Assembly (NCBI GenBank): GCA_964415355.1
Contig: CAYPYS010000001.1
Span: forward strand, 215,399-279,398
DNA from: an uncultured Planctomycetia bacterium
GTDB lineage: Bacteria > Omnitrophota > Gorgyraeia > Gorgyraeales > Gorgyraeaceae
Length of the DNA stretch: 64,000 bases
Direction: 5' to 3'
The notes under the pieces were generated by a model. It did no database searches and had not been told where the DNA came from. It saw only the letters and a list, made by a program, of their open reading frames with translations. A program made the translations under genes and the position numbers. Positions 13,722-55,300 of this stretch are shown here, piece after piece (position 1 is the first letter of the stretch; each line of letters opens with the position of its first letter).

Positions 13722-13723
13722 CC

Positions 13724-21269: not shown

Positions 21270-21282
21270 CTCTCTCACCCCT

Positions 21283-21319: not shown

Positions 21320-21367
21320 AGGGTCTGGGTCTCTGCCGACAGGCAAAGGCCCAGACCAAAAAATATA

Positions 21368-24486: not shown

Positions 24487-24522
24487 AACTTTACATTTCA
24501 ACAACGTTAAAGTGTAAACTTA
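24486..24522. repeat. PIE copy 11 (TAACTTTACATTTCAACAACGTTAAAGTGTAAACTTA)
   Basis: Read directly. It directly abuts the GH start codon. The ABC permease start (25375) is on the other side, so this is not a stop-overlapping copy. Confidence 0.9.
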
Positions 24523-24526
24523 GCAC

Positions 24527-25408: not shown

Positions 25409-25409
25409 C

Positions 25410-25446
25410 TAACTTTACATTTCAACAACGTTAAAGTGTAAACTTA
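25410..25446. repeat. PIE copy 12 (TAACTTTACATTTCAACAACGTTAAAGTGTAAACTTA; identical to copy 11)
   Basis: Read directly. The stop of permease 25444..26331 lies in its right end. Confidence 0.9.
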
Positions 25447-26331: not shown

Positions 26332-26344
26332 AATTATATCCGCC

Positions 26345-26381
26345 TAAGTTTACACTTTAACGTTGTTGAAATGTAAACTTA
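26345..26381. repeat. PIE copy 13 (TAAGTTTACACTTTAACGTTGTTGAAATGTAAACTTA)
   Basis: Read directly. A family-C element follows immediately. Confidence 0.9.
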
Positions 26382-26383
26382 CG

Positions 26384-27751: not shown

Positions 27752-27770
27752 ATTTTAAATCACGACTCGA

Positions 27771-28112
27771 TCAATTGGCTGCAAAAAGCCTTGACATGCC
27801 TTCGCCAAACTTAAGGCCAACGCCATCCTTCTCAACCCTTACAACCTCAGCCTCTCCTGTGAGTCGTGAAAAAGGAAAATCTCTTCTGTCGTCCTTAGGC
27901 ACTGATAAGTATATATTGAGCTTATCCTGGGGCTTGATATTCTTAATATCTATATTTATTACATATGCACCATGATAACTTAGGTTCAGAGTAAGCCCCT
28001 CTTGTGCCTCTCGCTTCTTATCGGCTGCGCCACGGTTAACGTTTACGGGAAGAGATAAATCTATCCTTTTAGACTGCCTCTTCTCCATAAAATCTCCAGC
28101 CCTCATCAACAC
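27771..28112 (-). CDS. PilZ domain protein (c-di-GMP binding)
   Basis: 113 aa. RQSKRIDLSLPVNV is an RxxxR-like motif. The ...TLNLSYHGAYV... beta-barrel and a downstream D.SxxG-like ...ISEGGV region follow. It is only 19 nt upstream of the SBP gene with no PIE between them. Confidence 0.6.
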   Translation of the reverse strand: MLMRAGDFMEKRQSKRIDLSLPVNVNRGAADKKREAQEGLTLNLSYHGAYVINIDIKNIKPQDKLNIYLSVPKDDRRDFPFSRLTGEAEVVRVEKDGVGLKFGEGMSRLFAAN

Positions 28113-28212: not shown

Positions 28213-28264
28213 TTTCCCTCTCTTCGTAGGGGAGACTTAAGTCTCCCCTACGAAGAGAGGGAAA
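28213..28264. repeat. 52-bp perfect palindrome TTTCCCTCTCTTCGTAGGGGAGAC-TTAA-GTCTCCCCTACGAAGAGAGGGAAA (family D)
   Basis: Read directly. It is preceded by a T-run (TTTTTTTTATTTTTTTT at 28172-28190) and lies just 3' of the giant ORF. Confidence 0.85.
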
Positions 28265-28266: not shown

Positions 28267-28305
28267 TTAAGCATACACTTCAACATTGTTGAAGTGTATA
28301 CTTAA
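28267..28305. repeat. PIE copy 14, GCATAC/GTATAC variant (TTAAGCATACACTTCAACATTGTTGAAGTGTATACTTAA)
   Basis: Read directly. The giant-ORF stop TAA (28302-28304) lies in its right end. Confidence 0.9.
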
Positions 28306-31300
28306 GGGCACCAAGAAGCAGCTACAGGTGCTACCTCAGGATCTTCTGGGGGATTGATATTATTTCGCTCAGATTTAAAGAATTTAATAGTATGAATACC
28401 AGCGTATATTAAGAGAGCGATCAGAAAAATGATTAAAAGGGCAGTAATTGCTTCTGTGCCTGACGTTAGCGACGGTGAATGATTCTCGACATAACGGTGT
28501 AAGATTTGGTGAATATCAAAAAACGACATAAAGAACATGCTAAATCCGGATAGATAATCAAGCGTTTCTCTCTGCCCCAGAGAGCAAATTTCTAAAAACT
28601 CCTGTACATCATGAGTAGTATATTCATAACCATTATTCCCTACAGCATCTATTATCTCATCAATCCTAGGCTTTCTATCTAGCGCGAACTCTAATCTTTC
28701 AATCTCGTATTCAATTACAAGGCACAAATCAGCTGTATCAAACATTGGATCAAAAGCCCCATCTCTTTTACTATTTAACAAAACAAGCCTATCTCCATCT
28801 TTCGGAAACGGGCCATACTCCTGCCTTAGAGCTATAGCCTCGACAATAAAATAACGAATAGAAGACTTTAAATATGCCCTGAAAGAAGCTACTCGCACCT
28901 GATCTTTGAGTAAAAAGTAGAATAAATTAAAGTGACGACTTGCAAATATCAATTTATCCTCAGCCACTAAGCGTCTCATATCAGACCTAAATTTATGCAC
29001 GAATGGAAGATGAGCTTTGATCAATTCCTTGCTGACCTTACTTCTAATTGAACGACTTAGAGACAACAGTAAAATGCCAGATTCCATGCAATTTTTTTCT
29101 GTCCATTCTATATATGATCTGTCGCCTATCTGCTCCAAGAAAGATTCCAATCTTTCTTCATCTTCTGTAATCCTATCTGAAATATGCCTCTGTAGAGTTT
29201 TTGCTTCAGGTCTATCAAGAAAGATCTCACTCAATGCATAAAGAGAATTTTTATTAAGGCCTCTTAAAATAAGTCGCAATTTAATATGCAACTTGTCAGC
29301 TTCTGTGAGTAGCTGTGATAAATCTAATATTGGCAACGCGGCACTGCCGGCTAGCATATTTTGAAAACCAACCGTCACTTCTTCAGGATTTATTATAACC
29401 TTAGCAATCCAAGAATCAGATATCTCAAAATCAAAATCACTATTTTTAAATATTTCTACAGCTTTTGCATAATGTACAATTTCTTTTTCAGGACGACCGC
29501 TTCTTATGATTTTGGCAAGACAACTATCTTCTTCAATTCCCCTATTTCTTAACATGTTAATTAGCCTTAGAATCTCGACTTCGGAACGGCTGCTTTTTAT
29601 GATTTGAGCAATATGCACAGACCCTGTAACTCCTTTGTTTCCTTTTAGCTGTTCAATTAACCTTAAAATCTTATCTTCGGCACGACTAGAACCTATTATA
29701 TAAGCAATATGCGCACACTCTGCGATTTCTTTTGCCCGTAATGCGGTAATCAATCTTAAAATCTCATCCTCGGAACGCTTAGTGCTTATAATTTTAGCAA
29801 TATGCGCACCTTCTATAATACCTTTGTCTTCTAACTTGTCAATTAGGCTTAAGATCTCAGTTTCGGAACGCCTGCTTCTCATGATTTGAGCAATATGGGT
29901 AGTCTCTGTAATTCCATTCTCTTTTAGTACATTAATTACAGTCCAAATCTCATCTTCAGAACGACTACTACATATAATTAAAGCAACATGCGCACTCTCT
30001 GTAATCTCTTCTACTTTTAACTTGTCAATTAGGTTTAAGATTTTATCTCGAGAACGTTCGGTGTTTATAATTTTAGCAATATGCGTAAGTCCTGTGATTT
30101 CCTTTGCCCTCAGTGCAACAATTAGACTTAAAATATCATTTTCAGAACGACCACTTCTTATAATTTGAGCAATATGAGTACCTTCTATAATACCTTTGTC
30201 TTCTAGCTTGTCAATTAGTCTTGATATCTCATCTTTTGAACGCCTACTAGCTATGATCTGAGCAATATAAGCATTGTTTACAATTCCTTTTCTCCGAAGC
30301 ATCTCTATTACATCCAAAATCTTCTCTTCAGAACGACTGCTTCTCGCAATCATGGCAATATGCGCTCCTTTTGCAACCTTTCTTTCTTGCAATACATCAA
30401 CCAGGCTTAAAACATCCTCTTTAGAGCGCTTGTTACTTATTATTGTAAAAATTTGATAACTATTAAATAGGTAGCTATGATGTTGCGTTTCTCTTTTTCT
30501 CATAGTAATTAAAGCTTGCAAAGTGTCGAGCTTTATTTCAAGTCTTTGAAACCGTGAAATGCGCATAGCCCTCTCATTGTCAAACAGAAGCTTCCCGTCT
30601 CTTTTAATTCTACTAATAAATACCTGAATCTGAGGATTTATTTCGTTTCTTTCTTTCTCTGAATCAAACAGGAGTCTAATATTATTTATATTTTCCTCTA
30701 TCTGTGCTATCTCTCGAGACATCACAGATGAATGCGCCCTCTTAGGCGTCCCTGCAAAGGATGTCGTTGTCATGACAAAAAATACAAATCCATACACACC
30801 TGACATCACGAACATCTTAGAGATCGCTTCGTCTACTTGTAATAAATTGATAATAGCTCCTAAGCCTAAATATATAAGTACAGCAACTCCCAGGGCAATG
30901 AGAAGGTATCGTCGTTGGCGGGTTTCTTTGGCTGATTCCTTAGAAAGAAAGTCTAGTATCTCTTTAATATCTGCTTTGACTCCCTCAGGAACATTTGGTC
31001 CCGTATGCCAGCTTTTAACGATCATACCGGCTATCTCTCTATTTCTTTCTGCTTGTTCTCTGTTCTCTTCGGCGTGATTACGTAAAGATTCTGCTTGTCT
31101 GCGTCTCAGATCTGCCATTGAATAATCATTTTTCCTATCATATTCAAAAGCTTGTCTCTCTAATCTCTCAACTTCCTCATCTTGTTCTTTTGCCCTTTCC
31201 TCTAATTCTGCGGCCTTAGCTAAAAACTTTTCTACTTTTATAGAATTTCTCATGCGATACGCCGCACCTAACTCTCTTATTGCATCTTCAGTAGGCATTC

Positions 31301-34300: not shown

Positions 34301-37300
34301 ACTGGCCTCCCATGATGTAAAACTTACCTATATCTTTTCTCTCAGGATAGTCAGGGAACACTTTCATCATCATGTCAATGATCCCCTGGAATTTTTGTCT
34401 ATATTTATGTGGCTCGTCAGGATGACTCAGCGCAGTCACAACAGCCACATTTATGCGAAACATCAATAGTATAACTATTAATGCCGCTAATAGGCCCTTT
34501 TTCAAAACACTGCCGCCCTGTTTATATAATGTGCCATCGCCGTCAAGAGTAACTAATTTTGGTCCTCTGGCAACAATTTTTCTCAATAGGAATTTCACTG
34601 TTGCCGCAAGAGGAGGCGAATGGAACATGCGGGCCAGGTATTTTAATATGCCGGATTTGTAGATAAGGTATGCGATTAGTAATAAAACAACGACTGTCAT
34701 TGCGAGAAGCAACAACGGCGAAGCAATCTCTAACTTTACATTCCAACGTTGTTGAAGTGTGAAGTTAAAGAGTAAAAACATAGGCATGGACATGGAGCTG
34801 CCTGGCCCATGAGTGTCTCTTTTTGTTCTCTCAGAAACCTTAAGCCTTTCGATAATATTTTTGCGTACCGAGTCAATGTCAAAACCACTCCCCGGGCCTT
34901 CTCCTATGAATCTTTCCACAAAATCGCCGCCCATCTCTTCAGTAGAAGGAGATTTCTTACCAAAACCCCCAGCCAACTCTGGCCCTATATGCGCCAATGC
35001 CTTCTTTTGATATGATGCAGCTTCTATCTTATCTGCATCTGGTACCAGACCTTTCATTGTCACATTATCTCTAGAATAGAAATAGAAATTGAATCCACCA
35101 GCCCATGGAGCGAGATAATATAAAACAATAATCTCCACATCCTTAAGACCCTCTGATTCACTTGACAAGTCTGTTAATACACTAAGTATCATGTCTGTAA
35201 CTACATTATGAGTGGGATGACCGTCTTCTCTATGCGGCATTATTACTACAAACTGCCCTTCTTCTCTAATAGCATCTTGATAGGCTTTTATAAATTCCTG
35301 AAACCTAATCTTCAATTTTCCAGCTGCTTCTATAAGTTCCTCACGGGATGGCATTACATCTGGGCTAGGTATATCAGGAATAATATTAAGATTCTCGACT
35401 ATTACAGCGCCTTCTCTCTCGCCAGATAAAACCACGCCGGCATTTCGCGCCTCCTCCCCTCTTATCTTTATTTTAAGGCTCTTTTCATCTACATGAGGCC
35501 TTGCCCTGTCTACATCATTCAAGATTATCCCTGCTTCGCCAGCGCTGAATACCATATTAATCATTATCACCTCATTCTCTGCGCCTGCTATAGCCATGCC
35601 ACCAGCTGCAATTTCCATGTCATCAGGGTGAGGCGAAGTAAAGATAAGCGGTATTCTTCTGGTTATTCTTATAGGGATAAATCCTTCGGGGGCCTTCTCT
35701 CCTTCAAATACAATAGCATGAGGCTGTTGTGAATCTGCGAGCACGCGTTCCCCATTTTTTATCCTGCCCACAACAAATGAATGAGCATATTCATAATCCA
35801 CTGCATCTCTTTCAGGAATCAATCCGTATCTTTTACCTAGCGTAGCAGCATGCTTCATGACCCAGTGAGTAATTTTTACATATTCGGTTCGGCGCGTCTG
35901 GCTTTTATGCTTACCGACAGCCTTTTTAACTCTATCTGCGATTTTTTTGCCAAAAGTGAAAACTAGGTTTACATATGAAGGATACTCAAAAGATTCATAA
36001 TAAAAGGTATATACATCCGGATAAACCTCGGCTCTATACTCTGTGACAAGCTCTCTGTTTTCTGGCGAATATGGCATCATAATAAAATCTGGCCTATAGT
36101 CGCCTAAAATATCTCCCAAGGCCTTTGCACTGTTTAATCTATACACCCTTATTTCGTTTCCATTAAGCCTTAATGCCTCAACAACATTACCGGCAAATAC
36201 CATATAATCATTTTCTACGACTTCAAACACTGCTACTTTCTTTCGTGCAGGCAATGGACATTTATTTATAGCCTCTGGTAAGTCAGGTTTATCGCTAAGA
36301 ATCACATTGCCGGATAGAGGAGACCAGTTTGACTCAGTATACCGAAGACAATTTAGATTTGCATTAATGTCATCTCTAAGACTCCTGACTTTCAAGACAA
36401 GAGATTCATCCTCTATGTTCCTCGCCATTGCCCCTAGAGTATCAAGTAGCGTTTTCTCTAAAGCAGGGAGCTCAGCAGGAATCCTCCCTGCATGGATAAA
36501 CGCAAAGAGTCTCTGAACACTTGAGGAGGGATAGGTTTTATTACGTTTCCGCAGGTCTTCTTCTAGAGACTGCCAGATTTGTTCGCAGTCCTGTTCCTTA
36601 AATACTCCTATAGCTTTTCCAGTCTCAAAAGTCAGCTGAACCGCTTCAAGGGCTTTGGGGTATAATGGACTCTCGGGATCAAGTACCATCCCTACCCAAA
36701 GTTCTTCAATCCTACGCAACAAACCATCTTCTTTAAAAAGATTGGCAAGCGGCACGACATTGACTGCCATAGTAACCATGGCCTTCACCCACTCATGCCA
36801 AATTGAATCAGCATTCTTGCCTGCATCCTCTGGAATGATTGCAGGATAATCTCTTTCTTCAAGGATTTCTTTAACGCGCCTTCGCTGAGCAATGTTATTA
36901 ATGCCCAGTCCTGCTGCTGCCAGAATAACCTTACCCTTCTTGCCTGGTATATAGACCATTGTCGGAACACCGTCTATTTCTCGCTCTTCTCTCCTGCCAG
37001 ATTGTCCTACAATTCCCCGAATCACGCATCCAGCAATGGATGTTTTGGTCTCATCAGACAATGTCTTTAACTGCTTTGAAGCACAGATTCTTTTAAATAA
37101 AGTATCAATAAACTCCTTATAATAAATCCCATTGCTCAAAAGAATAAACTTTGGTACCAATAGTTGAACGTCACCTTCGATCGCAAAATATCCCTGCCCT
37201 GCCATCACTTCTAAGAGCTCTACTAGTTCGTCCATGAAGCTCGTTAGTATCTTATCTGTATGCGGCGCAACAAAGACAACATCAGGGAGATGTCTGCTGC

Positions 37301-40300
37301 TAGAGGCCTCAGTGAGAGAAATTGATGCTCTATCCACAGTAATTTTCTGAATTTCGCCATCAACTTCAAGATATAATCCGCGTACTGGCCCGTTTAGTTG
37401 CTCAGCGCTCCTGCTTCCCTCCTGAACAATGATTACATCTGCCTTAGCATGATAAAACATAGCTATGTTCAGAGCACCGATTGGGTAAACACCTATAATA
37501 GTCCCGGTGCTACTATTTCCGGCCTGCTGTTTCTGCTCAGTAAAATAACCGAACAACTCATTGCTACTAAGCATAACCCCAGTAATAAAGCCTTGGCCGA
37601 GCCCAAAGAAATCCCCACCAGCCACGGATGAGGTGATTCCCAGCGAAGCCCACCCGGGCCATATTGCTATTCTTAAAACCTGCATAAGTGCAAAAATTAC
37701 AAAAGCTATCCAAAGAATATGCTCAATGATCTTTAAAGCACTGTTAATCTTCTGAAGACGAATTATCCTTTGAGACCTCGGTAGAACTATAGCTCCTCCG
37801 TCTGGCATTTCAATCAATCTGGACTGCACTTCATTCCAAAATTCCTTATACACATAAGCCCCGAACCTGATTCTTGCAATGCTAAATACAAAGAAACACA
37901 ACCCCAACCCTTGTCCTAATTCGGATGAAAGACCAAAAAACCCTCCTGCTTCTCGCCCTAACAGCCTTAGAAAAACAAATTTTCCTATGATTATAAATAA
38001 GTCCGCTATATTCGTCCAACCTCCAAAACCAAAGGGGATATAGTCACGATTATATTTATATACAATTTCTTCCCAGAAATTTGAAAACCAACTGCCTAAC
38101 ATTAAACCAAATAAAGCTAGATAAAAATTTGAAAATAATCCAAAGATTTGACTCTGGATAGCAATTTTCCATATAAATACGCCTAAGGTTATAAATACTA
38201 GTGCTGCGCTTAAAAAAGTCCTTAAAGGATTTTCTAAACGTGGGGTTTTAATTCCCCAGTCTTTCTTATCTGCTATGTAGCCAGCTACCCTCGCTATCAG
38301 AAACCCGACCAAAACAGACATGCCAATAACAATAAGCGGTGGTGCAGTCTCCCATAAAAAGTAGTGTAACTTTTCAAGCATATCAAATCCTGTCCTTGAA
38401 GACAGGTTTAATCTTGAAATCAAGGACAGGTTGCCAGCTGAAATAGCAAATGGTACAAGCAACAAGGCGTTGTTTTTCTGTTTTAAACTAAAAAAGATAT
38501 AATAAAAAAGCGAGACTAACATACTGGTGGCCAAGATTAAACCCCATATCAGCAACGTAGAATCAGATTGTATGGCTACCCATGTAACAGCCCATCGATA
38601 ATATAACCAATACGTCACTAGCATAGGCCCGACTGTAAGTATTAGTGCTCGCGCCATAGTTTTGCCTCGATCAGGGAAGAAAGAATTCTCAGACCAAAAA
38701 GCTCGTCTAAGCGACTTCGCTGCTATGGCCGTAGGTATAAAAACTGCTATGATGAGCCAACCAGCCATGGGAAGAGACAATAAACCTCTATAAATTGCTA
38801 AGGTAAAAGCCGTCAAACTAAACACGACCAAGGTATGTTTCTTACGCTGCGTATTATTAAACCACGCTTCATCATGTTCGCACCATCCGCTATAAGCTTG
38901 AATTTTTTGTCCCGAAATTTGTAACCATCTCCATGAAATTGTCAACATAAGGACAATTATTGGCAAGACAAGGATAACTAGTAGGTCAAATTCTGACAAG
39001 CCATATACCGCGCCATACAAAATCGTACCGGTCCCGAGCATCAAGATAACCAGGATAAAGATCAATACAAAAGATCTCCAGCCTAAAGATATCCAGCGCG
39101 GGACCTTTGATGCGTATTGTTCGTAATCACTTCCAAACTTATCTTTTAAATAACTCTCTTCTTTTATCGACTCTTTTTTAACAGACGAGCTAGTTTGAAG
39201 CGCCACGAATAATCCTGATATTAACGCGATTATCCAGGTAAGGGTCTTAGCATCCATTGGATAGAATAGCGTTGCAATAATAGAGGTTATAAAGCTAGAG
39301 AAAATTATAACATAACTAATGTATATGGGATTTCTGGTCCATCTGTAAGGGCCTTTGGCAACAAGGGCATCGGGGTAAATTTCACAACGAGTAATGATAA
39401 GATGTGGATCTATATATAGGTGTGCGTAATTGAGGAAAATACAGCTGGCAACTAAAATGCTTGCCGGCCAAAGCAAGATAGGATCGATAAGACCTAGAAT
39501 AAAGGCAAAAATTACAGAAACAAGCAACTGTCTTTGTTCGCACTTAAGATACCGCCATAGACGTATAAGGGCATAAGCAGAAATACCTAAAATGACAGCA
39601 ATCAGTTTTATGTTCACCTCTGGCGGTGGCTGATTCTCGACAAAGTGCCGTAAATTTTCAAGGATATTGAGCTGACTAAATCTGTCATTGCGAGCAATGA
39701 CAGATGGAGACACCTTAGCAAACAAGGAAACGCCTAACATGAAGCTTGAATTATCCTGATCGGATATGAGGGTGATTGCCGCAAGATTTGCCAGAGGGTG
39801 AGAGGCAATAAGGCTATGCTGTATGCGCAATGGTTCAGGATCAGCTTTAATAAGTCCCAGCTTTATAGCTAGTTCTACAGTCTCAAGACGTTTTTGAAGT
39901 CTGATAGTAGGTTTCACAGCCCGTCCCAAATGAGATAGTCCTAGATGTTCTCTTGCATTACTAAAGGTTATGCTAACATTGGACTGCGGGATAGATATCC
40001 TCTTGGAAATCTCTTTATTTGTCAGCCCTTGAGCCATAAGGGTTAATATTTCTTTTTCCCTATCAGTAAGCTGAGACATCTTTACAAGCTTTTTAAGTGG
40101 CTCAGGATCAGCTTTAATAAGTCCCAGCTTTATAGCTTCTTCAACAGTCTCAAGACGTTTTTTAAGTCGTGCAAGCAAGTTTCCCCATCCCAAAGGAGAT
40201 AGCCCTAGATGTTCCCTAGCACTTCGATAGAGTGCATTAATATTTGGCACTGTAGTAGAAAGCTTCTCAGCGATCTCTTCAATTGTCAATCCTTGAGCCA

Positions 40301-43300
40301 TAAGAATCAATATCTCTTTTTCTCTATCAGTAAGCTGAGACATCTTTACAAGCTTTTTAAGTGGCTCTGGGTCAGCTTTAATAAGTCCCAGCTTTATAGC
40401 CCGATTAACAGTCTCAAGACGTTTTTTAAGTCGCGTAGCCAAACTCTTACCATGTCCCAAAAGAGGTAGTCCTAGATGTCCTCTGGCGCCTCGATAGCGT
40501 GCATTAATATTTGGCACTGTAGTAGAAAGTTTCTCAGCGATATCTTCGATTGTCAATCCTTGAGCCATAAGGATCAATACCTCTTTTTGCCTCTCACTTA
40601 GACGAGGTGTATTGATAAGCTCTCTAAGTGATTTAGGATCAGCTTCAATAAGTCCCAGTTTTATAGCCCGCTCTACAGTCTCAAGATATTTTCTAAGCTG
40701 CATAACCAAGGTCTTGCCACGTCCCAAAGGAGGCAATCCTAAATGTTTTCTGGCATTACTAAAGGTTATGCTAACATTGGACTGAGAAATAGAAAATTTC
40801 TCAGCGATCTCTTCGATTATCAGTCCTTGAGCCATAAGAATCAATATCTCTTTTTCTCTATCAGTAAGCTGAGACATCTTTGCAAGCTTTCTAAGTGGCT
40901 CAGGATCAGCTTTAATAAGTCCCAGCTTTATAGCCCGCTCCACAGTCTCAAGACGTTTTTTAAGCCTGATAACATGGCTCACGCTTTTTCCTAAATGAGA
41001 TAGCCCTAGATGTTCTCTGGCGCGTTGATAGTGTTCATGAATAGTGTCTATATTAATAGCGATTTCTTCAGCGATCCTTTTATTCGTCAGTCCTTGAGCC
41101 ATAAAAGTTAATACCTCTTTTTCCCTCTTACTTAGACGAGGTGTATTGATAAGCTCTCTAAGTGATTTAGGATCAGCTTCAATAAGTCCCAGTTTTATAG
41201 CCCGCTCTACAGTCTCAAGATATTTTCTAAGCTGCATAACCAAGGTCTTGCCACGTCCCAAAGGAGGCAATCCTAAATGTTTTCTGGCATTACTAAAGGT
41301 TATGCTAACATTGGACTGAGAAATAGAAAGTTTCTCAGCAATTTCTTTATTCCTCAGCCCTTGAGCCATAAGGGCTAATACCTCTTTTTCCCTGTCAGTA
41401 AGCTGAGACATCTTTACAAGCTTTCTAAGTGGTTCAGGGTCAGCTTTAATAAGTCCCAGCTTTATAGCTAGTTCTACAGTCTCAAGACGTTTTTTAAGCC
41501 TGGTAGCAGGTCTAACAGCTGGTCCCAAATGATCTAGCCCCAGATGTTTTCTGGCGTTTCCATAGATTACATGAATATTGGAAGAGGAAACAAGAGAGAA
41601 AGTCTTAGCAATCTCTTTATCTGTTAACCCTTGAGCCATAAGGATCAATACCTCTTTCTCTCTATCAGTAAGCTGAGACATCTTTACAAGCTTTCTAAGT
41701 GGTTCAGGGTCAGCTTCAATAAGTCCCAGCTTTATAGCCCGCTCTACAGTCTCAAGACGTTTTTTAAGTTGTACAAGCAAGTTCCCGCGTCCAAAATGAG
41801 TCCGCCCTAAAAGATGTTTGTGGGTATTCCGGAAGATTTGACCAACATTACCCTTGGTAATAGAAAGCTCTTTAGCGATCTCTTCATCCCTCAGCCCTTG
41901 AGCCATAAGGGTCAAGATCTCTTTTCTTCTTGGAGACAAGTAAGGTGGATTTATAATTTGCCTCAATAGCCTGACATCAGCATCAATCAATCCGCGCTCT
42001 ATGGCTTGGTTTAATCCATAATCAGTTGAATAGGCTCTGTCCAGGGCCTGCCTAAACGCGATATCTATATCCTGGGTATGTTCAAGGCCTGATCGCTGTA
42101 AGGCCTTTACCCATATGAGAAATGCGTACAAAAACTCTCCGCCTTTTAGTTCTTCAAATGCATCCGTAACATCCCCATAGCTTTGTCCTATAAGTCTGCC
42201 CTTCCACGCCTTCATCAAGTTAACTACATCTTCTTCCATCTCCTCTGTTTTTATTGAAAATATAATCGCATTCCTCAGCTTATTAATTAACTGATCACTC
42301 AATGCTTTCCAGCGCTGGCGCTTCATGTGCCAGAAATCATCCGAACAATCAAGAATCTCATCCCAGCCGTCAAACCTAACAAATGCCCTACAAAATAGCC
42401 TGAGAAGCGATTCTGTTTCAGTATCGGCGGAAAGAATTCCCTCAGGCACAGAACTTGAACTAACAACAAGATCCGCATATTGGTCGTGTCCGTCCATTGG
42501 CAGATCTTTAACTATCTGTTCCGGAAAGGCTACGGCCACCTTAAAGGCCTCCGGCATCTCTTCAAGAAGCCTGTCATAATATCCGCCTCCTCTTCCAAGG
42601 CGCTTCCCCTCCCTTGTGAACAGAAGCCCTGGGACAAGGATCAGGTCAGGGGCCCCACAAAACAACTCGCACGATTCTTTGGGCTGCAAAATGTCATACG
42701 GACCGGTCTCCAGATTTTCTCCAAGATTCTGTATTATACGAAATAGGAGAGCATGCGTTTCATCTTCTTTATCTACGCAGGGAAGGGCTACGGTTTTACC
42801 CTGTTCGAGAGCTTCTTCAATTAAGGGGACAATTTGTGGTTCAAGAGGCATAGGATAATACAGAAATACCACTTTTGTTTTCTCCCAGCGCTGCTGAAAC
42901 AACTGGTGTTCTTCCAAGGCTTTAAAAAGAGATTCGTTTCTTTGAATTGCTGCTCTTTTATCGAGCTTTCTTAAGCGCTTCTTCGCCATCGCCCTCAGCT
43001 GCTCTTTTTGCTCGTGAATATTAAGTTTCTTTCCTTTTTTAATAGCTATTACTACCGCTATGATTGCAAATGAAGAAACTGCCTGCGAGTGTAAGACGAA
43101 CTGCTTTAAAAAACGCAATGATATAAAGTCATAGAATTTCAGCAAAATAAATACAAAAATAATCCCCAATATTATACGAAAGATAAGATTCCTAATAGTA
43201 TTTCCTTGAGCAACCACTATATCGTCTTCCTGGTAACCTGCTTTCTTAAGATTTTCAACCGCTCGACCTTTTATCCTCTTCATTTCTCTTAAACCCAATG

Positions 43301-46300
43301 CGCTTTTGATGATAAGAGCCGCGCTCAAAATTAGAAATATTGAAAAAGCTATCGATATAAATAGAAATCTTCTATATATATCCTGAATAAAAACGGCCCG
43401 GGCAAGCCCAAAGAAATCCCCACCAGCCACGCCCCGTACGAAATCTCCGATTTGCGTACGGGGCACGGTTGAAGCGATCCCCAAAGTAGCCCACCCGGGC
43501 ACAAATACCTTTGTCATTGCGAGGCCAAAGAGCGCAGTGACTCTTGTAGAAGTTTTCTTATCCGCAATGAGGCCACCTTTAATATCTTTATAAGAGAAAG
43601 CAGCGGCAGCCGCCGCTACAACTCTATTTCCCACCTCAAGTTTCCTTAAAATAGATGACACATTATTCATGGCAGGCGCTCTTCCTTCTCCAATGCCTAA
43701 TACTTCTGTTATCTCCCTATTGCTTAGGCCTTTCATTACTAATTGCAAGACTTCTTTTTCTCTGCCGCTGAGTTCATCAAAACCTTTCTCGCGATAAAAA
43801 GCATCATCTAACCTTATCAGCCCTTTTCTAATGGCTATTACCACTGCTTCTATTTTATTTGCTGCTTGTAGTTTTTTAAGAATAGGCTTTCTGTGTTTTA
43901 ACCCAAATGACTTATATCCTAGAGCAAGCGCCATTTCCTTATCAGAAAGGCCTTGCGCAAGAAGCAAAAGAATTATTCCTTGAAACACTGTCAACCTTGT
44001 TTTAAAAATCTCTTCGGTCGCAATCGAAAGGTTCCCGACAGATATCGTCTCAGCTTGACTACTAGCTCTCCCATCTGAATCCACATGCCTGCTAACATCA
44101 GGGAGAAATAAAACCTCGGCTACGCTGCAAGAAATGCGGCATAAGAAACCAATGCCCAAAGGAGTCCTGATGTATTTCCATATATAAGAAAGAAGTTGCG
44201 TTAGTTCATCTATAGCCTCTTGACATGGATTTAAATAAAGCTCCTCAACCGAAATCGAACTGAGCCCATAGGCCTTTGTAGCGGCATTTTTAAACCGTTT
44301 TATGTTATCCAGAACTTTTTGCAATAATGAGCTTATGCACGCTAATTGCAGCGGCGACTCTTTTATCTCTGTTTCTATAAATAATAAACAATCTAATAAA
44401 CTATTTAAAAGTTCCTTTGTTTCCCATAGGGTTTTCTTTTTTAATGTCCTCCTTCCGCGCCCGGATCCATTCTCATCCACGAATTCAAATAAGGCATTGA
44501 TTTTTATTCTTGCGATTGAAAAAGCAGTAATGATCTTGGTAAAATGAGGCCCCGCGCTCCCAGGAATTCCCGAAATATCATATGCTTTTACCCAACCAGG
44601 CGCAGGAGACCTTAAAAACTCCTCTGTTGCGTCGATCCATTTTCTATAGTAATCAAAAGCAGCATCCTTCACCAGGTCTATAGAGCGTGACGATAGAGGA
44701 AAATCTTTTTCTGTCAATACATTGCCTCTTTTAAAGTATCTTATGCGGATCGCATCTTCGCCCCAATATAAATCAACCACCTTCTCCGAAGTAGGCAGCC
44801 AGACTAAGACAGCATATTTTGTCACCCCGCCTATAAATAAACGACGCAGAGCCAAACCTTCCCTTAAAATAACCTGGGCAGATCTGGCTTCTGAATCTTT
44901 CACCGTAGCCTTTGTGCTCAAGAAACGAATTTTAGCCCCATTAATCCATATGCTTCTATGTGTTTCGCCGATAAAAGTCTCTTCCAAAACTGCAGGATAT
45001 GCCCTATCTAAATCCATATCAAGAATCAGGCCAACAAGATAATCTTGCAGTTTCATGCTATATTTATACACAGGCACCTCTTCCTTAATACCAATAATGC
45101 CCATATCGCGGCCATCTACGATAACATGCCTTTTCCCATTTTTAAAAGGGAACTCTAGACTACAAACCAGCTCGCAAACATCTTCCTTATACGCAACAAT
45201 CTCAGCCGATACTAGCTGCTTTGCTCCTGCCTTTTTATATACAAGTTTCCAAATTACCTTAAACCTTTCCATTCCCGGAAGAGAAAGCATATTGGAAGGC
45301 GCGACCCTTAAACACAAGCCCTCTAAGCCCGCACGTCCTCTTGCATCAAGGTCAGCTTCCTGATAGCCGATTAACCCCTCTTCCAAAAGCGATGGCACGC
45401 TTGCGATAGCCGGAGCAAATGCCATTGAAGCCAAAAATGGAACTACATTTCCTCTTATAGCCTCCCAGAATACAATACACCCATAGACTAACAAAGACGT
45501 CATGAGTAAGAAAAGCACAAGAAATAGCCAGCCTCTATACTTAAGCTTGCTAATATAGGCCTTATAGGCCTTGCCTTCTGGTGTTTTATGCGCTCCTAAA
45601 AATAAAATAGCTATAAATTCCGGGTATAGCCTGCCCAATAACGACAATAAACCAAGCATGCTAAACCAGGCCACAGCTATTCCAGCTACCCCCCATGCTG
45701 CCTGAAGCGCCAGGGTATATGGTAAAATAAATATTGATATTAAAAACGTAAGGAAATAGCTTCCAACCCCCCAATATAAAACAGCAAATGCAAAATGTTC
45801 CAATCTCCCATGCCTAAACATACGAATTCCAAACGATATAATATAAAAAATTAAAATTGCAAGCAAAATCATAGTAAACCAAATTCCCGGTTTGTCAAAA
45901 AGCGCGATCAATTTATCTATATCCGGATCCGGCGGGCCGTTTTCCCATAGAGAATAACGCAGGATTTCCTGGATGCTGGAGAATGAAACCCACAATGCCG
46001 CCAGAGAAAAATTTAAATTCGAACCTGATGAGTCTTGCTTGCCAATGCGGTCGTCAACTGACGTAGTCAGTATTTCCAAACATTCATCTTTAAGCATAAG
46101 TTTGGTTAAAGATGGTATTATTTTCTCAAAATCGCTTATAATGCGATTTGCCGTATCTACCTGTTCATCTGTAGCTACTCTCTCTCCATCAAACTCCCAA
46201 TGCTCTACTCCCCATGACCAATATCTTAAGAATACCCAGAAGTATATAATGACAAAAATCGGCTGGATAGCAACACTGGGTTCATAGTCTGAAAATATAG

Positions 46301-49300
46301 GTATCCATATACCGTTAAAATGTGATTTCAATCTAAAATAATCTAAAGAACAAAAACTGCTTATTGTGCTGTGACTTCTGCTCCCACCCCTAACCCATTG
46401 CTCAAGAAGCCAATCAGCCCCGTCTTCCTGCGCTTCGACTGACAGATACACTCGTATTGGCTCATCCTTCCTATTTCTAAACTCTAACCCACATGCCATA
46501 TCTTTTTCTGCTTCTCTACTAAGATAGTTTTCGATTTGCTTTAAAGCTACATCGGAATCGCCAACAATACCAAGCTTTTCCTTTAGTGCGCGCATCAGAC
46601 CTCTTGCAACTATGGGTTCATATGAGTAAAAGAAAAGTTTTGCTACATGCGCCATGAACTCTGATTCTAAAGTTTCCTCAAAAATATCAAAAGGATAAAT
46701 TTGTAAACCTATCTCATCAAATACACGCGTCAATATGCCATTCTTGACTTCAGCAAAGCCTCTTTCGATCCTTATTTCTTTTCTACCCTGCCATAGTATT
46801 TGACCGGCTAAGAAAAAGCCACCATTTGGACCTGTTGCAGCATTCTCAATGACGCCGTCAGGATGTTCCTCTAATACTCGCCCGGGCATTACAAATGGAT
46901 ACGCTTTCACAAACCTGCCTTCTACGCGCCTTGCCAACCCATCCACTATCTCTATCTTCGCGCCTGACCATAAAGCATTCCTAGAATCAGGACCATTATG
47001 ATAAAGATGAGTGCCAACTGCGCCATATATATCGGTACACCTATAATCCTCGAATACTATAATGCCATTATTTACTTTTATATTATGGGCCCACGCCAGG
47101 GCGCCTACGCCCCCTCTTCCAGTTTTAACCTCATTATTCGAATCTGAAGAGATCCCTGTTATCACGCAATAGCCTTTTTTGCCATACCTATCGAGAAAAT
47201 CTCCTGGTACCATGCCTGGAAAGGCATTTATAAAAGTACCCTCTACCAGCTTCCCATCCTCTATTACCGCATCCACAAATAGCGCATTTTTTCCTTCTGG
47301 GCCAATATCGCGGATCAATTCTCCTGTTGCATTATAGACCTTTGTTACACGCCCTTCTTTATCATCTGAGTTTACCTTTTCTACTCGCAGCATTAGTCCT
47401 TCCTCATTCTCATGTCCTTTCCACTTATCCCACCATGGCTTTACTAAATAAAGGCCTCCTCTATTATTCAACTTTGCATCGAGCACCACACAATCAGGGT
47501 AACGTTCAAATAAATCTCCTGGCACACGAGGAGGAAACGTCCCTACAAAAGTACCTCCGACTAACTGACCGTCTACTATAGTGCCTCCATCATATATAGC
47601 ATTTATTCCTTCACCTCTGCGATAACTGCGGATATCTCCTTCGTCTCCTTCTAGCATTACCATCGATATAAACATTAAACAAAATTCCTGACTAGGCAAC
47701 AATCCTTGCGTCATTGTGAGTGCCGTAAAAATAATGCCCAAGAGCAAGGTGAGATTATTTTGGTCGAATTCAGGAGGTTTATTAAATAACGCCATGATTA
47801 CTATGGCGACAGAGGCTATTAGCAGAAATACATCTGCCAGGTTCGCCACATCAAAACCTAGAATAACTATCCAATTTACAACATAGCCTGTAGTTAATTT
47901 TTCTGTAATGTTACCCAAAGTGCCTCCTGCTAAGATACCGAGCATAGCTAGCATAAAAGGCCAGGCTTTTGTATTTTTCCAGTGCAAGAGAAACCATAGG
48001 ATAAGAGAGAACATTAGAGTAGTTAGAATAATAGTAAAAAATACATTCTCATTATCTTTTATAACTTGTATATGCGTAAGCTGAATAACTTGTCCAAATA
48101 ATGGTGTCTTAAGAAGGCTTTTAATGATATCTACATAAGAAAGCCCCTGCTCTGATAGCACATCAAGCTGTGCAGCCGTAAGTGCAACGGGAATATTCAA
48201 CTTAACCCACAGCTTAGTGCCAATATCTATCGCAAAGGCAAGGCATGCTGCAATAAACGCCATCAACCTGCGTCTATGCTGTTTAAGCCATGACCATAGA
48301 AATGGAAAGATAATAATAGGAGCTTGAGAAGCAAACCTTACGCTGGACCTGAACATCGCGATAGGGTTAAAATTTATACGTGAACTATGCAAGAAAACTA
48401 TTTCTCCTCCCACAGATTGATATAATATAAAACATCCTTTAAAGAATAAGGAAAACATGAGACTCAAAATCCCGCACCAAAAAATAAACTTCCATTGAAG
48501 CCCAGTATTTTCCATTCCTGATATATCCAAAGAATATGCCTGTCTGTCCAGTGCATCTGTAAACTGTGCCAGCATTCTAGAGCACTCTGAATATGACGCA
48601 GCCATACCAAACCAGCCCAATACAATTATGTAGATACCCTGCGCTGCCTGAATAGCTAAATTTTGCGGCAATATAAGGCTCGATACAAAATATACCGCTA
48701 AATAACTCAAAGCGCTTTCTAATAAAGTCACGATCAAGAATCGCCGGAGTGACCAGCCTTGCTTTGCCCCGCGAATCCCAGAGAATACAATATAAGTAAT
48801 TAAAGTTGCAAGTAAACCCATAGTAAACCAAACTTCTATGTTGTCAAAAAGTCTGAATTCATGCGCAACCGACAAACATTTTTCTAAGCTCCCACTTTGA
48901 CATTGTTGAAGCGCAAGCTTAATGTTATCAGATAAAAGCGCAACTGGTGCAAGAAATAGGCCATATAATGGAGCTTTCTCTTGTTTTCTTGCTGAAGCAC
49001 ACGAAAAAATTGGTCTGTCAAAGTATAATAAATACACCAGAAAAACAAAAAACCCTACTATTTCCCCGGATATCATGCCGATGAAATCCAAAGGATCTTT
49101 TACCCTGCCAGCTATCCCTCCTAGAAAGTCTTTTGACCTATAGAATTCTAACCATAAGAAAATAAAAATAAACACAACAAACAAACCTGCTAATTTTATA
49201 ACAAGCTGTAATAGCGGCCTGTTATTTTGTGAAGGCCTGTCAAAAAACAAATAACCCATTATAAAAACAATTCCAGTCAGGCCAATAGAAATCCCATAAT

Positions 49301-52300: not shown

Positions 52301-55300
52301 TCAATGCAACAGGAATATTCAGCTTCACCCACAGCTTAGTGCCTATATCTATTGCAAAGGCAAGGCATACTGAAATAAACATTATTAGCTTATGGTTTGG
52401 TTTTTTCAGTCGCGGCAATAGACGGACAAGGAGGAGTGCAAGAACTATCAAGGAAATAACAAAAAGAATAGTGACTGTCGTTATATGTAAGTCTAGAGGC
52501 GGTGCGTTAGGCTCGACAAATGCAATGACAGATGGAGATACCTTCAGGCCGGGTAAAGGCGCTCCATAATAAGGGGTCGTGGTCATTTTCAGGATACCCT
52601 CATAAGGCATAGATTCGTATTGTTCCATAAGGGAAAAAACTTCTTTTCTGAAGAGAGTGGAAAAATGATTCCTATAGAAACAAAAGCTCATGAAAGCGAT
52701 GCTTAAAACCATGATGAGTATATACTGCCACCCTGCCTTTTTAAGTTTCTGGGCAAAAAGCTTCAAAGAGGAAAATACCTTTCGTAGAGTGTTTTCACGG
52801 GAATAAAATGTCTCTGATTCCAATACTACGAGTAAATCTCTTTCTTTCATCCAATTAAAAATAGCATCGACCATTTCTTCGCCCTGACCGTACTCCCAAC
52901 TAATATTACATACTTCTATTATTGCTTTAAGAGTACGATAGAGCTTGCTCTCCGTAATATTGTTTAACTTACAACGTATATAAGCCCAACTAAACTCCTG
53001 GTCAAAATAAGATGATGCTATGATCTTCAATGTTTCTATCTCTATCGGCAGCAATCCCTCTAACAGCTCATGAGGGTAAAGTGATATCTCTAAATCCGGA
53101 TCCGAAATGTATGTACTAGCAGCCTTTAATATTATAAAACGTCTTTTTATCTCCTCTCTCTTCCCGCCGCCTTGATAAGCAGGTATCTCATGTCCCAGAT
53201 TTTTAAGGATATTCACGATCTCAGGAATATAATAAGTTCTTAACCCCGCCAACATTTTATCCACATCTTCGGTTACATCTTCCCCTCGTGATTTTCTCCA
53301 GTCGATAAAAACTTGCGCAACTTCTTTTCTGTCTATAAACTTTCCTAATTGCCGTAACAAGAATATCAGCTTCTCACTAAATACTTCCGGCAATACTTCC
53401 GGTAATACTTCCGGCTCCTCAGGCTCTCTAATCTCAGAATATGCTATGAAGCTTGCAGGATCCAATGATAAAGGAATTTTTTGCCCATTTTTTATTGTAA
53501 CTAAACCTCGCGCTATAATGACCAGTTGTTGATATTGCTCTCTGGGCCTGGGATATTCTTTTGCTTTTGAAAAATGAGGATTTCTAAGCAAACGCTCGAT
53601 TATCAGTTCTATTTTTCTATTCGAGATTTTTCCAATGCAAGTGCTGTTAGAGCCGTCCAGTGCATTTATAATCTGATGAAATTCAAGGATCCCACTCGCC
53701 ATGACTTTTAAAACATCCAATTGTTTAAAATCTATATTATGTTCCATCATTATTCTTAACTGAGGCGATATCTCCAGATATGGCATATAAAGCATTCTGA
53801 CGATCTCCAATATAGCAAGGCGCATATCAAGGCCGCGGCGGCTATCTCTAAGTCTGAAGATCTCGCCTTCCATCTGTCCTGATTCCTTTAGTTGTTCTAG
53901 CAAAGATCCTTTTAATTGGCTAATAGAATTTCTAATGGCACTTATTGTGCTAATAATTAAGAGGCGATCGATTTCTTCTGGTTTTTGTACTCTTATGCCA
54001 TCTGACCTCTGCTGCCATCGAATATATGAAATTGCAATTTCTGCTAAATTCTTTTGTTCTGCAAATTCTCTAATTAGAAATATCAGGCTATCTGAAAAAG
54101 GAATGCTTTCGCGCTCTAGCAGCATAGCAGAGTCTACGCCTTCTATCTTTCCGGCTTCTATAGCTGCTAGAACAGTTTCTTTGTGCACTCTACGAACTTC
54201 TGATGCCTCTAACGACCGCGGAGGAGGCACTTCCATCTTACGCCTTGCAGAATTATAGCAAACACGTACATTATTTTCACTTGTGCCCAATTTATGGGCA
54301 ATCTCCTTAGGCGACAATGCTTTAGCCAAAAGCTCTAATACTTCTTTTTCCCTAGGAGTCAGCCAATGAGTTTCTTTGCTTCTAGTATACTTAAAGAAAA
54401 AACCAAAACCTGATTTAAAAACGCGAATTCCAAATAATATAATAGAAAAAATTAAAATTGCAAGCAAACCCATAGTAAACCAAACTTCCGCGTTGTCAAA
54501 AAGTGCGAATTTAAAACTGCCTGATAATGCTGCAACCGGCGTAAGGACTAAACCATTTATATAACCTCTTCCATTATTGCTTCGTCTTGAGCTTCTGCTC
54601 TTCTCTTTTTCTGAAAGAGCCGAAAAGCCTTCTTTTTTCAGACGTGGCAAATATGCCAGAATATCAAAGAGAGCTATCATCTGTCCACACACCATGCCAA
54701 TAAAATCTAACGGATCCCTGATTGTTCCGAAAAACTGTGTCAGAAAATCCTCTGGCCTAAGAAATTCTACCCAGTAGAAAAACGCCATAAACCCAAAGAA
54801 TAAAGTGATGAATCCTAAGGAAGCTAACCATGGCAAACGCCAGCGTAGCGAAAGGCTACGTAAAACTAAATATCCTATCAAAAAAGAAGGACCAGTCCTG
54901 GCAATAGCAAGTCCATAGTGATTCAGCCAACCATATATTGGATAATAATGGATGATCGACCTTTCTTTACCCAAAACTTGTATAAAATCACCAAGATGGC
55001 CGATTGCAAATCCTAGAAAAAGGCATATAAACGAATAATATAAAACAGACATATTGTTGCTGAATTTATTCACTGTGTATCTAGCTGTCTTTGCGTATAT
55101 ATAAGTAGTAAATCCAGCACCTGATGCTGTGCCTGCCAATATCCATGCAATCTGTTCTAATCCTGGGTTGCCGAGTTGTACCTGCCAAAAAGCAAGGCCA
55201 GCAAAACCAGCTATAAGAAGCGCATCGACTATGCCGACTATGATCGTTACAAGGCGGGATTTCTTTGAGAGGTGTAACAAAAGAAGGCCAAGGCCTACTA

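Follow-up and report, generated by a model that had tools for sequence, protein, structure and literature searches.

Why would a polytopic membrane protein carry a long series of DNA-binding-type helix-turn-helix (HTH) domains? The question is raised by a giant open reading frame (ORF) at 28302-64000 of the window, the whole 64,000-nucleotide stretch of DNA analyzed here; the ORF and all coding features described below lie on the minus strand. The ORF encodes at least 11,871 amino acids (28302-63917), and its frame is open through to the window end, so the listed GTG at 63917 is not the real start. A sequence-only reading had called the product a polytopic membrane protein, and we indeed found about 65 hydrophobic segments (Kyte-Doolittle (KD) score ≥ 1.8), together with several signal-peptidase-II-like domains and PEMT/ICMT-type membrane-enzyme domains. 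Pfam searches revealed further enzyme modules tiled along the protein (a GNAT fragment, several copies of Peptidase_A8, two PEMT/ICMT domains, 5-FTHF cyclo-ligase, PIG-L and ISN1), and recurring junction motifs set the modules apart. The giant protein is encoded by an uncultured marine Omnitrophota bacterium. All named matches of the neighboring YchF at 56-70% identity are Candidatus Omnitrophica/Omnitrophota, and matches named for other phyla are at most 40% identical.

Giant proteins of Omnitrophota are a recent and poorly understood finding, and the published surveys center on enzymes and on modules for secretion and adhesion, with no mention of DNA-binding domains. The protein described here resembles the "multi-enzyme metabolic cluster" and TM-only inner-membrane-anchored classes (bioRxiv 10.1101/2023.11.21.568195; 10.64898/2026.06.07.730766) in its Omnitrophota origin, its length of more than 10,000 amino acids, its dozens of transmembrane (TM) helices, its succession of mutually unrelated enzyme domains (among them signal peptidase II, GNAT and a HAD-type domain), and its internal repeats and fuzzy nucleotide tandems. 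Unlike the Archaeovorin/dockerin-type giants, it has no SecA-DEAD, dockerin or TSP3 domain detectable with Pfam in the 11,871 amino acids within the window; its N-terminus lies outside. Neither the text of these two preprints nor one supplement mentions LuxR, GerE or HTH. A strongly basic array of eight HTH domains that probably lies on the cytoplasmic side offers a concrete, testable handle on what a giant protein does inside the cell, where it may retain or read DNA at the membrane.

The array spans 39804-41939 (aa 7327-8038), as defined by Tandem Repeats Finder, Pfam and a unit HMM. Tandem Repeats Finder reported 39831-41768 with a period of 267, 7.3 copies, 76% matches and a score of 1786, and each unit scored 136-148 bits with the unit HMM. 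Together with our delimitation of the units, these searches give eight tandem units of 88-90 amino acids, matching the eight ~90-residue units proposed earlier. In protein order they are U1 (41673-41939, aa 7327-7415; recognition helix TKGNVGQIFRNTHKH), U2 (41403-41672, aa 7416-7505; SSSNIHVIYGNARKH), U3 (41136-41402, aa 7506-7594; SQSNVSITFSNARKH), U4 (40869-41135, aa 7595-7683; NIDTIHEHYQRAREH), U5 (40602-40868, aa 7684-7772), which is a near-copy of U3, U6 (40335-40601, aa 7773-7861; TVPNINARYRGARGH), U7 (40071-40334, aa 7862-7949) and U8 (39804-40070, aa 7950-8038), whose recognition helix is of the U3/U5 type. Five distinct recognition-helix types are present. Just before U1 lies a degenerate helix-4-plus-tail remnant, LNQAIERGLIDADVRLLRQII (41949-42014, aa 7302-7323), which gives a weak HMM match.

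The Pfam search confirmed the proposed GerE/LuxR-type assignment, recovering GerE (PF00196) on the array in eight stretches (E = 2.1e-75; 248.7 bits; cut-off 23.5). Sigma70_r4_2 reached 193.9 bits and Sigma70 region 4 also matched, both below GerE. We rejected the sigma-70 family as an assignment: in Pfam, region 2 is absent and region 3 gives weak partial matches, none of which passes alone. By sequence, the nearest solved relatives are GerE (1fse) and NarL (1je8), at E ~1e-6. An AlphaFold model of U3-U4 has a pLDDT of 86.8 and a pTM of 0.56, so that no fixed inter-unit arrangement is predicted. One modeled unit aligned with GerE 1fse in Foldseek over 77 columns (TM(target) 0.89, rmsd 1.3 Å) and also matched the DNA-binding domains of DegU, LiaR and VraR. 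As modeled, each array unit is a complete GerE/LuxR-type four-helix HTH domain.

The units have the four-helix fold of the GerE/NarL C-terminal domain, in which helices 2-3 make up the HTH and helix 4 packs on the core, and its signature LTxRExEVL...GLxxKEIA...S..TV......KLG. What had been taken for a conserved helical linker is in fact GerE helix 4, in which ETVERAIKLGLI matches the canonical xAVxxAxxxGLI. In the model this helix is N-terminally extended, with a longer loop before it and a short fifth helix after it. The array differs from the GerE/NarL domain in this fifth helix, in about 11 additional residues that separate helix 3 from canonical helix 4, in its eight copies in series, and in varied residues at the NarL base-contact positions. 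The additional residues make up a loop rich in Gly and Pro and lengthen the helix by two turns. Beside the HTH units, Pfam detected no receiver, autoinducer-binding or other sensor domain; the units adjoin other HTH units, an MTHFS domain and TM modules. In this the array is unlike full LuxR/FixJ/NarL-type regulators, which pair the HTH with a receiver or ligand-binding domain.

How regular is the repeat? The sequence-only reading had described near-identical alternate units in a two-unit (~535 nt) higher-order repeat. Near-identity holds for U3 and U5 only, which are 93% identical in amino acids and 94% in nucleotides and have an exact run of 194 nt in common; the other pairs at this spacing are 66-78% identical in nucleotides. 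Along the array, lag-2 nucleotide identities (74, 76, 94, 78, 76 and 66%) are not consistently above lag-1 identities (72, 71, 70, 69, 75, 86 and 70%), in which the 86% belongs to the adjacent U6 and U7. Most unit pairs are 51-70% identical in amino acids and 66-78% in nucleotides, and a 55-nt exact run is common to U2 (in helix 4) and U8. Rather than a regular higher-order repeat, we find a single two-unit block that occurs twice (U3U4 and U5U6, within 40264-41502) at a 534-nt offset, with 87.8% identity over 705 nt. Identity between the two copies (40264-40968 versus 40798-41502) is patchy, the 194-nt exact run lying between stretches of 63-78%. The proposed recent duplication or gene conversion is thus borne out for U3 and U5, with the patchiness in favor of gene conversion. 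The antisense shadow ORFs at 40209 and 40743, described as ~95% identical, are 80% identical over 261 nt; we consider them non-coding because they run antisense to a Pfam-supported ORF.

The copy number had been flagged as assembly-sensitive, and other assemblies bear this out. An independent contig from a sister sample, L167, contains the same gene with two units only, joined in the 55-nt U2/U8 run, and another contig, L004, ends inside U7 with a hybrid end. U1 also has a loop between helices 3 and 4 that is unlike the one in strain L167. Should the two-unit variant be genuine, the protein can do without six of the units and three of the recognition-helix types. The eight-unit structure could be largely an assembly artifact, or a neutral recent expansion without function, with fewer units, for example two, in the true gene. 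Short-read de Bruijn assemblers commonly misjoin at exact repeats of ~55 nt, and the L167 junction, the broken L004 end and the 194 exact nucleotides common to U3 and U5 would all fit such an origin. We nevertheless think it very improbable, since an assembler cannot invent units that are mostly 66-78% identical in nucleotides and carry five recognition-helix types. The frame is also unbroken across the 2.1 kb, dN/dS stays under 1, and the U7 tail and U8 receive independent confirmation from L004, with 1 mismatch across 14.8 kb. L167 itself has uneven identity (96.1% before the junction and 99.35% after), a pattern that fits a join that is chimeric or collapsed, or else another strain. A coding repeat that appears as eight units, two units or a broken contig depending on the assembly calls for caution in cataloguing giant genes from short-read metagenomes.

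Pooled dN/dS values show that the scaffold helices are conserved and the recognition helices variable. The ratio is 0.19 in helix 1, 0.29 in helix 2 and 0.38 in helix 4, against 0.62 in the loop and 0.76 in the recognition helix, the least constrained part. The equivalents of NarL Lys188 and Lys192, which contact bases in the NarL-DNA complex, vary among units (S/S, H/G, H/Q, N/R or G/R). The array carries a net charge of +46 over 712 residues, placing it at the 99.7th percentile of same-size windows as the most basic stretch. The net charge of the whole protein is also +46.

Six more HTH units elsewhere in the giant ORF, as the sequence-only reading had noted, lie at aa 753, 850, 944, 3186, 6642 and 6716. 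The first three form an older tandem of the array's 89-residue type (60861-61661, aa 753-1019) and share 37-42% identity with the units of the array. A single unit of the array type (54141-54362, aa 3186-3259) directly follows a TM segment and KYTRSK, and the last two (43593-43994, aa 6642-6775) are canonical GerE units with a normal short helix 4. Units of the array subtype adjoin TM modules at three other sites in the ORF, and the other HTH clusters carry charges of +3.6 to +5.4 per 89 residues, compared to a mean of 0.35.

On which side of the membrane does the array lie? We detected no hydrophobic segment in aa 6960-8056 (maximum KD 1.49). Besides the array, this stretch holds an ATP-dependent folate enzyme domain, 5-formyltetrahydrofolate cyclo-ligase (42462-43007, aa 6971-7152; E = 4.4e-36). 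Upstream lie three TM segments (43041-43364, aa 6852-6959), with KKGKK after the last one. Under the positive-inside rule, basic residues after a TM segment mark the cytoplasmic side, and we therefore read the array segment as cytoplasmic. The array is thus probably on the cytoplasmic face, as judged from hydropathy and the positive-inside rule only. The downstream junction (39471-39749, aa 8057-8149) contains a weakly hydrophobic segment, an RNDxF...PPP motif and two TM segments, and fits this topology only if the first of these (KD 1.36) crosses the membrane. A PEMT/ICMT-like membrane module (38961-39731, aa 8063-8319), 60% identical to aa 4152-4397, comes after the array.

Our leading interpretation, to which we give a probability of roughly 0.4, is that the array acts as a multivalent module that binds DNA while tethered to the membrane, on the cytoplasmic side of an inner-membrane-anchored multi-enzyme protein. 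In its favor we count the GerE identity, the fold, the charge, the pattern of selection, the TM-free compartment and the recurrence of such units beside TM modules and of GerE arrays in other giant proteins (P0016 and P0009). The sequence-only reading had suggested repurposing for protein-protein or nucleic-acid tethering; of these, strong positive charge with an intact fold favors nucleic-acid binding. Against it we count the varied NarL contact positions, the relaxed recognition helix, the two-unit L167 contig, the basis of the topology assignment, the KD 1.36 junction segment and the pTM of 0.56. On this view, the HTH of every basic domain would make contact with DNA, and neighboring domains, held ~13 residues apart, might pair via helix 4 like GerE-family dimers. 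The array would then hold chromosomal DNA against the membrane-bound protein, which may serve to localize DNA, possibly including the very long gene of the protein itself, where the protein is inserted into the membrane, or else to control transcription from there. In this interpretation, unit number and the set of recognition helices change quickly, by unequal recombination and gene conversion. Serial HTH modules in AraC/MarA two-HTH domains and Myb repeats contact successive stretches of DNA, raising affinity and site length; these functional analogs differ in belonging to other HTH families, in having two or three modules and in being soluble. A further functional analogy is with the transcription regulators ToxR and CadC, which anchor a cytoplasmic DNA-binding domain in the inner membrane; each of them, however, combines just one OmpR-type winged helix with one TM helix and a periplasmic sensor, compared with eight LuxR-type domains and about 65 TM segments here. 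At ~700 residues, with 89 per unit, an array fragment is small enough to be expressed and assayed without culturing the organism.

Alternatively, the domains may no longer bind DNA and may form a structural or protein-protein module within a giant protein rich in scaffolds, either a flexible beads-on-a-string spacer or a docking array. Docking might, for example, involve RNA polymerase or other partners, contacted in the manner of sigma region 4. Such a role would agree with the varied base-contact positions, the relaxed recognition helix, the high Sigma70_r4_2 score (193.9 bits), an apparent tolerance of copy-number change (8 versus 2), the pTM of 0.56, and the prevalence of HEAT, TPR and WD repeat scaffolds in Omnitrophota giants (bioRxiv 10.64898/2026.06.07.730766). 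We regard it as unlikely, given that extreme positive charge exactly in the HTH clusters is unexpected for a neutral spacer, that the whole GerE fold is kept, including the HTH geometry (TM 0.89), and that sigma region 2 is absent nearby and region 3 just weakly and partially matched. Far less plausible is a polyprotein from which the array or single units are cut out to act as ordinary soluble LuxR-type transcription factors. The recurring junction motifs and several signal-peptidase-II-like domains would suit it, and a proposal that giant proteins of Omnitrophota are processed has been published (bioRxiv 10.1101/2023.11.21.568195). Yet no cleavage sites are known, and the units have no attached partner sensor domain. 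Moreover, signal peptidase II cuts at the membrane, in the signal peptides of lipoproteins, rather than in cytoplasmic linkers.

Is this arrangement unique? It had been described as highly unusual, which is fair, but it is not unique, as other proteins contain up to 11 tandem GerE units. In a search of 1.84 billion proteins, at least 51 of the best 150 cluster representatives carry three or more GerE units in tandem, including further giant proteins with 11 (P0009) and 4 (P0016) units. Tandem GerE arrays of 3-11 units recur in unrelated giant proteins, and this seems to be undescribed. It is conceivable, if quite improbable, that such arrays are a general, copy-number-tunable multivalent anchor of giant bacterial proteins, tying chromosomal DNA to wherever such a protein is located or being synthesized. 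If so, the tied DNA could include the giant protein's own very long gene, swappable recognition helices would make the array a modular DNA reader, and the nucleoid of the Omnitrophota cell would be coupled to a membrane-embedded multi-enzyme assembly. Like the array described here, those in P0009, P0003, P0002, P0011, P0007, P0013 and P0016 have 3-11 GerE units in series at 70-90-residue spacing; several belong to proteins 2,800-7,700 residues long, and some show A/B unit alternation. They are, however, just 30-37% identical to it, and none of the tandem-GerE proteins checked is as rich in membrane segments as the giant ORF. The high-GC giants with GerE arrays differ further in having canonical short-helix-4 units and 0-2 hydrophobic segments. 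Among the database arrays, the extended-helix-4 unit type occurs only in P0016, P0019, P0111 and P0145.

The tandem HTH array is real and its domain assignment is correct. With Tandem Repeats Finder we found a single array spanning 39831-41768 (period 267 nt, 7.3 copies, 76% matches, score 1786), and by reading the encoded protein we delimited eight units (U1-U8) of 88-90 aa across aa 7327-8038 (window 39804-41939), with a degenerate helix-4-plus-tail remnant just upstream. The Pfam GerE model matches eight separate stretches in the array (E=2.1e-75, 248.7 bits), and Sigma70_r4_2 and other HTH models score below it. These analyses together confirm the eight tandem HTH units claimed in a sequence-only reading of this DNA, and the LuxR/GerE-type identity also holds, since the GerE HMM recovers all eight stretches and the failure of that model, which the reading had named as refuting, did not occur. 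A sigma-factor identity was rejected, with regions 2 and 3 absent.

To describe a single unit we predicted the structure of U3-U4 with AlphaFold, using an alignment of the units found in the window (mean pLDDT 86.8, pTM 0.56). Each unit consists of helix 1 (LTDREKEVLxLMA), helix 2 (xKEIAExL), the recognition helix (helix 3), a Gly/Pro-rich loop (HLGLPPLGRGK), a 17-residue helix 4, a turn (KLGLIxADP) and a short helix 5 connecting to the unit that follows. One modelled unit superposes on B. subtilis GerE (1fse) with a TM score of 0.89 and an rmsd of 1.3 Å, and also on the DNA-binding domains of DegU, LiaR and VraR; the closest solved chains by sequence are GerE and NarL (E ~1e-6). Given this match in both fold and sequence, the element earlier described as a conserved helical linker is instead the GerE domain's own fourth helix, in which ETVERAIKLGLI corresponds to the canonical xAVxxAxxxGLI motif. 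The protein also has two canonical GerE units, at aa 6642 and 6716, in which the motif takes its ordinary form (e.g. KIEAVVIAIRKGLI, aa 6642-6700), whereas the array units have ~11 residues added between helix 3 and the motif. The extended-helix-4 type recurs as three tandem units at aa 753-1019 and a single unit at aa 3186-3259, 33-42% identical to the array units, and with the two canonical units these make up the six further HTH units that had been noticed elsewhere in the protein.

The giant ORF (28302-63917, minus strand, 11,871 aa) contains the whole flagged interval. The GTG listed as its start (63917) is not genuine: the reading frame continues uninterrupted to the final base of the window (63917-64000) and the window edge interrupts a GNAT domain, which means that the full protein has more than 11,871 aa. 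A hydropathy scan (19-residue mean KD >=1.8) finds ~65 hydrophobic segments, in agreement with the membrane-protein setting first proposed. Besides the GNAT fragment, Pfam identifies several Peptidase_A8 (signal-peptidase-II) domains, two PEMT/ICMT-type modules, a 5-formyltetrahydrofolate cyclo-ligase domain (E=4.4e-36), a PIG-L domain and an ISN1 domain (E=4.8e-50). The protein is composed of internally duplicated modules with 30-66% identity, including several signal-peptidase-II-like and two ICMT/PEMT-like ones. Paralogous pairs lie at aa 1140-1316/6757-6944, 2837-3173/4710-5057, 3837-3900/5211-5274 and 4152-4397/8063-8319 (60% identity, with 8063-8319 directly after the array), and aa 5436-5737 hold a threefold repeat of ~105 aa each. 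Module boundaries are marked by a recurrent junction motif, xRNDxFxxLxIxxxL...W/V..(G/Q)PP, at aa 1191, 2838, 4711 and 8076 (window ~60345, 55404, 49785 and 39690), which comes after a weakly hydrophobic 'FG(F/L)AMT'-like stretch and before a strong TM helix with a basic cluster. Near the C-terminus lies a second coding tandem array (29550-30268, aa ~11130-11490) with a 93-nt (31-aa) period, 7.7 copies and a 186-nt higher order; its consensus is HIAQIIRSxRSExEILxLIxxLxxKGI and its sole Pfam match is a weak one to MarR_2.

Likeness between the GerE-type units is uneven. Protein identity is 51-70% except for U3/U5 (93% aa, 94% nt) and the adjacent U6/U7 (82% aa, 86% nt), so the statement that alternate units are near-identical applies to U3/U5 and not to the others. 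Similarly, a two-unit block exists only in U3-U4 and U5-U6, with tails alternating NTPR and MSQ; the proposed 2-unit higher-order repeat describes this pair of blocks but was overstated, as there is no regular periodicity. At the 534-nt offset we found one 705-nt segment that is 87.8% identical overall, in which a 194-nt exact run sits beside stretches of 63-78% identity. By our own arithmetic, a mismatch-free 194-nt run at 12.2% mean divergence has a probability of ~1e-11 per position. The exact run and uneven identity indicate a recent gene-conversion tract or partial re-duplication, as judged from these sequences, rather than the uniform decay of a duplication, which bears out for U3/U5 the earlier suggestion of recent duplication or gene conversion. 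Synonymous divergence is halved in helix 4 (pS 0.21 versus ~0.45 elsewhere), a pattern that fits homogenisation of this helix. The two plus-strand shadow ORFs, put at ~95% identity in the sequence-only reading, measure 80%, and we considered and rejected a coding status for them.

We compared the window with two independent contigs of the same population. L004 (ENA, SAMN10231904, 14.9 kb), from an oxygen-deficient marine water column sample (PMC12220078), has 1 mismatch in 14.8 kb but ends inside U7; in its last 100 nt a U6 loop match (93%) is joined to a U7 tail, with an in-frame stop present. L167 (ENA, SAMN10231903, 20.5 kb), likewise from oxygen-deficient marine water, codes for the same protein, but its array has just two units, U1 and a U2/U8 hybrid. 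Its join falls exactly within a 55-nt exact run common to helix 4 of U2 and U8, and 1,599 nt (six units) are gone in frame. Identity to the window is 96.1% before the join and 99.35% after it, and this unevenness suggests either a real deletion in a different strain or an assembly that is collapsed or chimeric. The 194-nt U3/U5 core lies on either side of U4 and so creates a loop in a short-read graph, and we infer that eight units represent the shortest path through this loop. With two units in L167 and a break inside U7 in L004, the caution that copy number is assembly-sensitive was justified.

We favour, with a probability of roughly 0.4, a model in which the array would serve as a membrane-tethered multivalent DNA-binding module. 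The intact GerE fold and HTH geometry favour binding of nucleic acid, and so does charge: the array is the giant protein's most basic stretch of 712 aa (net +46, 99.7th percentile), its net charge is the same as that of the 11,871 residues taken together, and the other HTH clusters are likewise basic. Purifying selection acts on the scaffold helices (dN/dS 0.19, 0.29, 0.38) and the recognition helix (0.76) and loop (0.62) vary, with five recognition-helix types, a combination that we counted in favour of the same role. The array lies within a 1,090-aa segment free of any hydrophobic stretch that also holds an ATP-dependent enzyme domain. Because this segment begins after a TM helix followed by KKGKK, the positive-inside rule would place it in the cytoplasm, which we again counted towards nucleic-acid binding.

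Other observations count against such a role. The equivalents of NarL Lys188 and Lys192, which contact bases in the NarL-DNA structure, are not conserved among the array units; we found no target DNA for the array; and the two-unit variant, if real, would make most units dispensable. At the C-terminal end of the TM-free segment, the topology requires a weakly hydrophobic stretch (KD 1.36) to span the membrane, a need that weighs against the cytoplasmic, nucleic-acid-binding reading. A docking or spacer array that functions independently of DNA is a possible but doubtful alternative. The xRNDxF junction motif could represent either a TM hairpin or a site of processing; release of the array units by processing seems unlikely. 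An artefactual or neutral expansion is equally improbable despite the discordant contigs: the units mostly share only 66-78% DNA identity, have five distinct recognition helices and keep an intact frame with dN/dS of 0.25-0.83, features that no assembler could have made up. A DNA-tethering role for the array is a plausible hypothesis.

An exhaustive HMMER search with the array over 1.84 billion cluster representatives returned 548 proteins at E<=1e-3, 30 at <=1e-10 and 4 at <=1e-30, the best match being a fragment of the same giant protein. Among the best 150 of the 548, a unit HMM identifies at least 51 with three or more GerE units in tandem, and many of these multi-GerE matches are giant proteins (2,800-7,700 aa) whose units are canonical and whose amino-acid composition is of the high-GC kind. 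Database matches P0002-P0010 are high-GC giants of this kind, with up to 11 canonical GerE domains in several clusters beside repeated enzyme/toxin-like modules; P0009 has 11 Pfam GerE stretches. These giants have 0-2 hydrophobic segments, compared with ~65 in the array's host. The extended-helix-4 type appears among relatives only in P0016, P0019, P0111 and P0145. P0016 (4,631 aa, ~5 hydrophobic segments) has four GerE stretches beside subtilase, HEAT, transglutaminase and ARMT1 domains; the gene adjoining it is also very long. Contig scans with a two-unit alignment covered one genome per species and JGI metagenomes, and HMM scanning of all ORFs in the at least 160 loci listed found ordinary single-HTH LuxR proteins only and no second array of the extended-helix-4 type. 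Word-indexed searches, run with the array and with the unique region before it plus U1-U2, gave no homologue; as they also missed known fragments of this protein, they do not bear on orthologues. The searchable literature yielded no description of tandem LuxR/GerE domains within one protein; as far as it goes, tandem GerE arrays are rare but recurrent and undescribed. The label "highly unusual" is fair, though "unique" would not be: an eight-unit array in a protein with ~65 membrane segments has no counterpart among the relatives inspected, but tandem GerE arrays as such recur. The host fits the 'multi-enzyme, TM-only, inner-membrane-anchored' class of Omnitrophota giants, with which it shares signal-peptidase-II content (bioRxiv 10.64898/2026.06.07.730766); neither that study nor bioRxiv 10.1101/2023.11.21.568195 mentions LuxR, GerE or HTH domains. 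The array brings together the GerE/LuxR HTH domain and the Omnitrophota giant membrane protein, each of them a kind already known.

The genes downstream of the giant ORF all lie on the same strand and encode a sugar ABC transporter, a GH2-like enzyme, a ROK regulator, TolC, an RND adaptor with two pumps, GspF, a pseudopilin and YchF, a set that indicates a diderm bacterium. All named YchF matches at 56-70% identity are Candidatus Omnitrophica/Omnitrophota, and other named phyla reach at most 40%. JGI and ENA marine metagenomes contain identical copies of neighbouring genes. Directly after the giant gene, before the sugar-binding protein gene, is a 111-aa PilZ-domain gene (c-di-GMP-binding family, ~27770-28106) whose position is kept on four other contigs.

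Nearly every gap between co-directional genes contains a 39-bp palindrome, TTAACTTTACAYTTYAAC-N3-GTTRAARTGTAAAGTTAA, with copies at 836-874, 2502-2540, 5248-5286, 8560-8637 (two copies), 12459-12497, 13723-13761, 15779-15817, 17168-17206, 19982-20020, 21282-21320, 24485-24523, 25409-25447, 26344-26382 and 28267-28305. It frequently overlaps the stop codon of the gene upstream, as it does at the giant ORF, and its half-sites have 32 matches versus 0.32 expected. Rfam has no match anywhere in the window, this palindrome included; the element could be an intercistronic RNA hairpin or REP-like. Two copies lie in frame inside the giant ORF, at 34730-34768 (aa ~9717, FNFTLQQRWNVKLE; L004 agrees) and, in degenerate form, at 48884-48922 (aa ~4999, IKLALQQCQSGSLE). 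We dropped the idea that the former is a gene-fusion scar, since the latter is an in-frame insertion relative to the paralogous module (aa ~3120-3150). This insertion suggests a small mobile palindrome that seems able to enter coding sequence, reminiscent of Rickettsia palindromic elements. The palindromes were also considered as targets of the HTH array, without support. Other long perfect or near-perfect palindromes with a GTAGGGGAG core adjoin the 39-bp elements (2928-2981, 28213-28264 and 15722-15756/15867-15901) and may be terminator-like hairpins.
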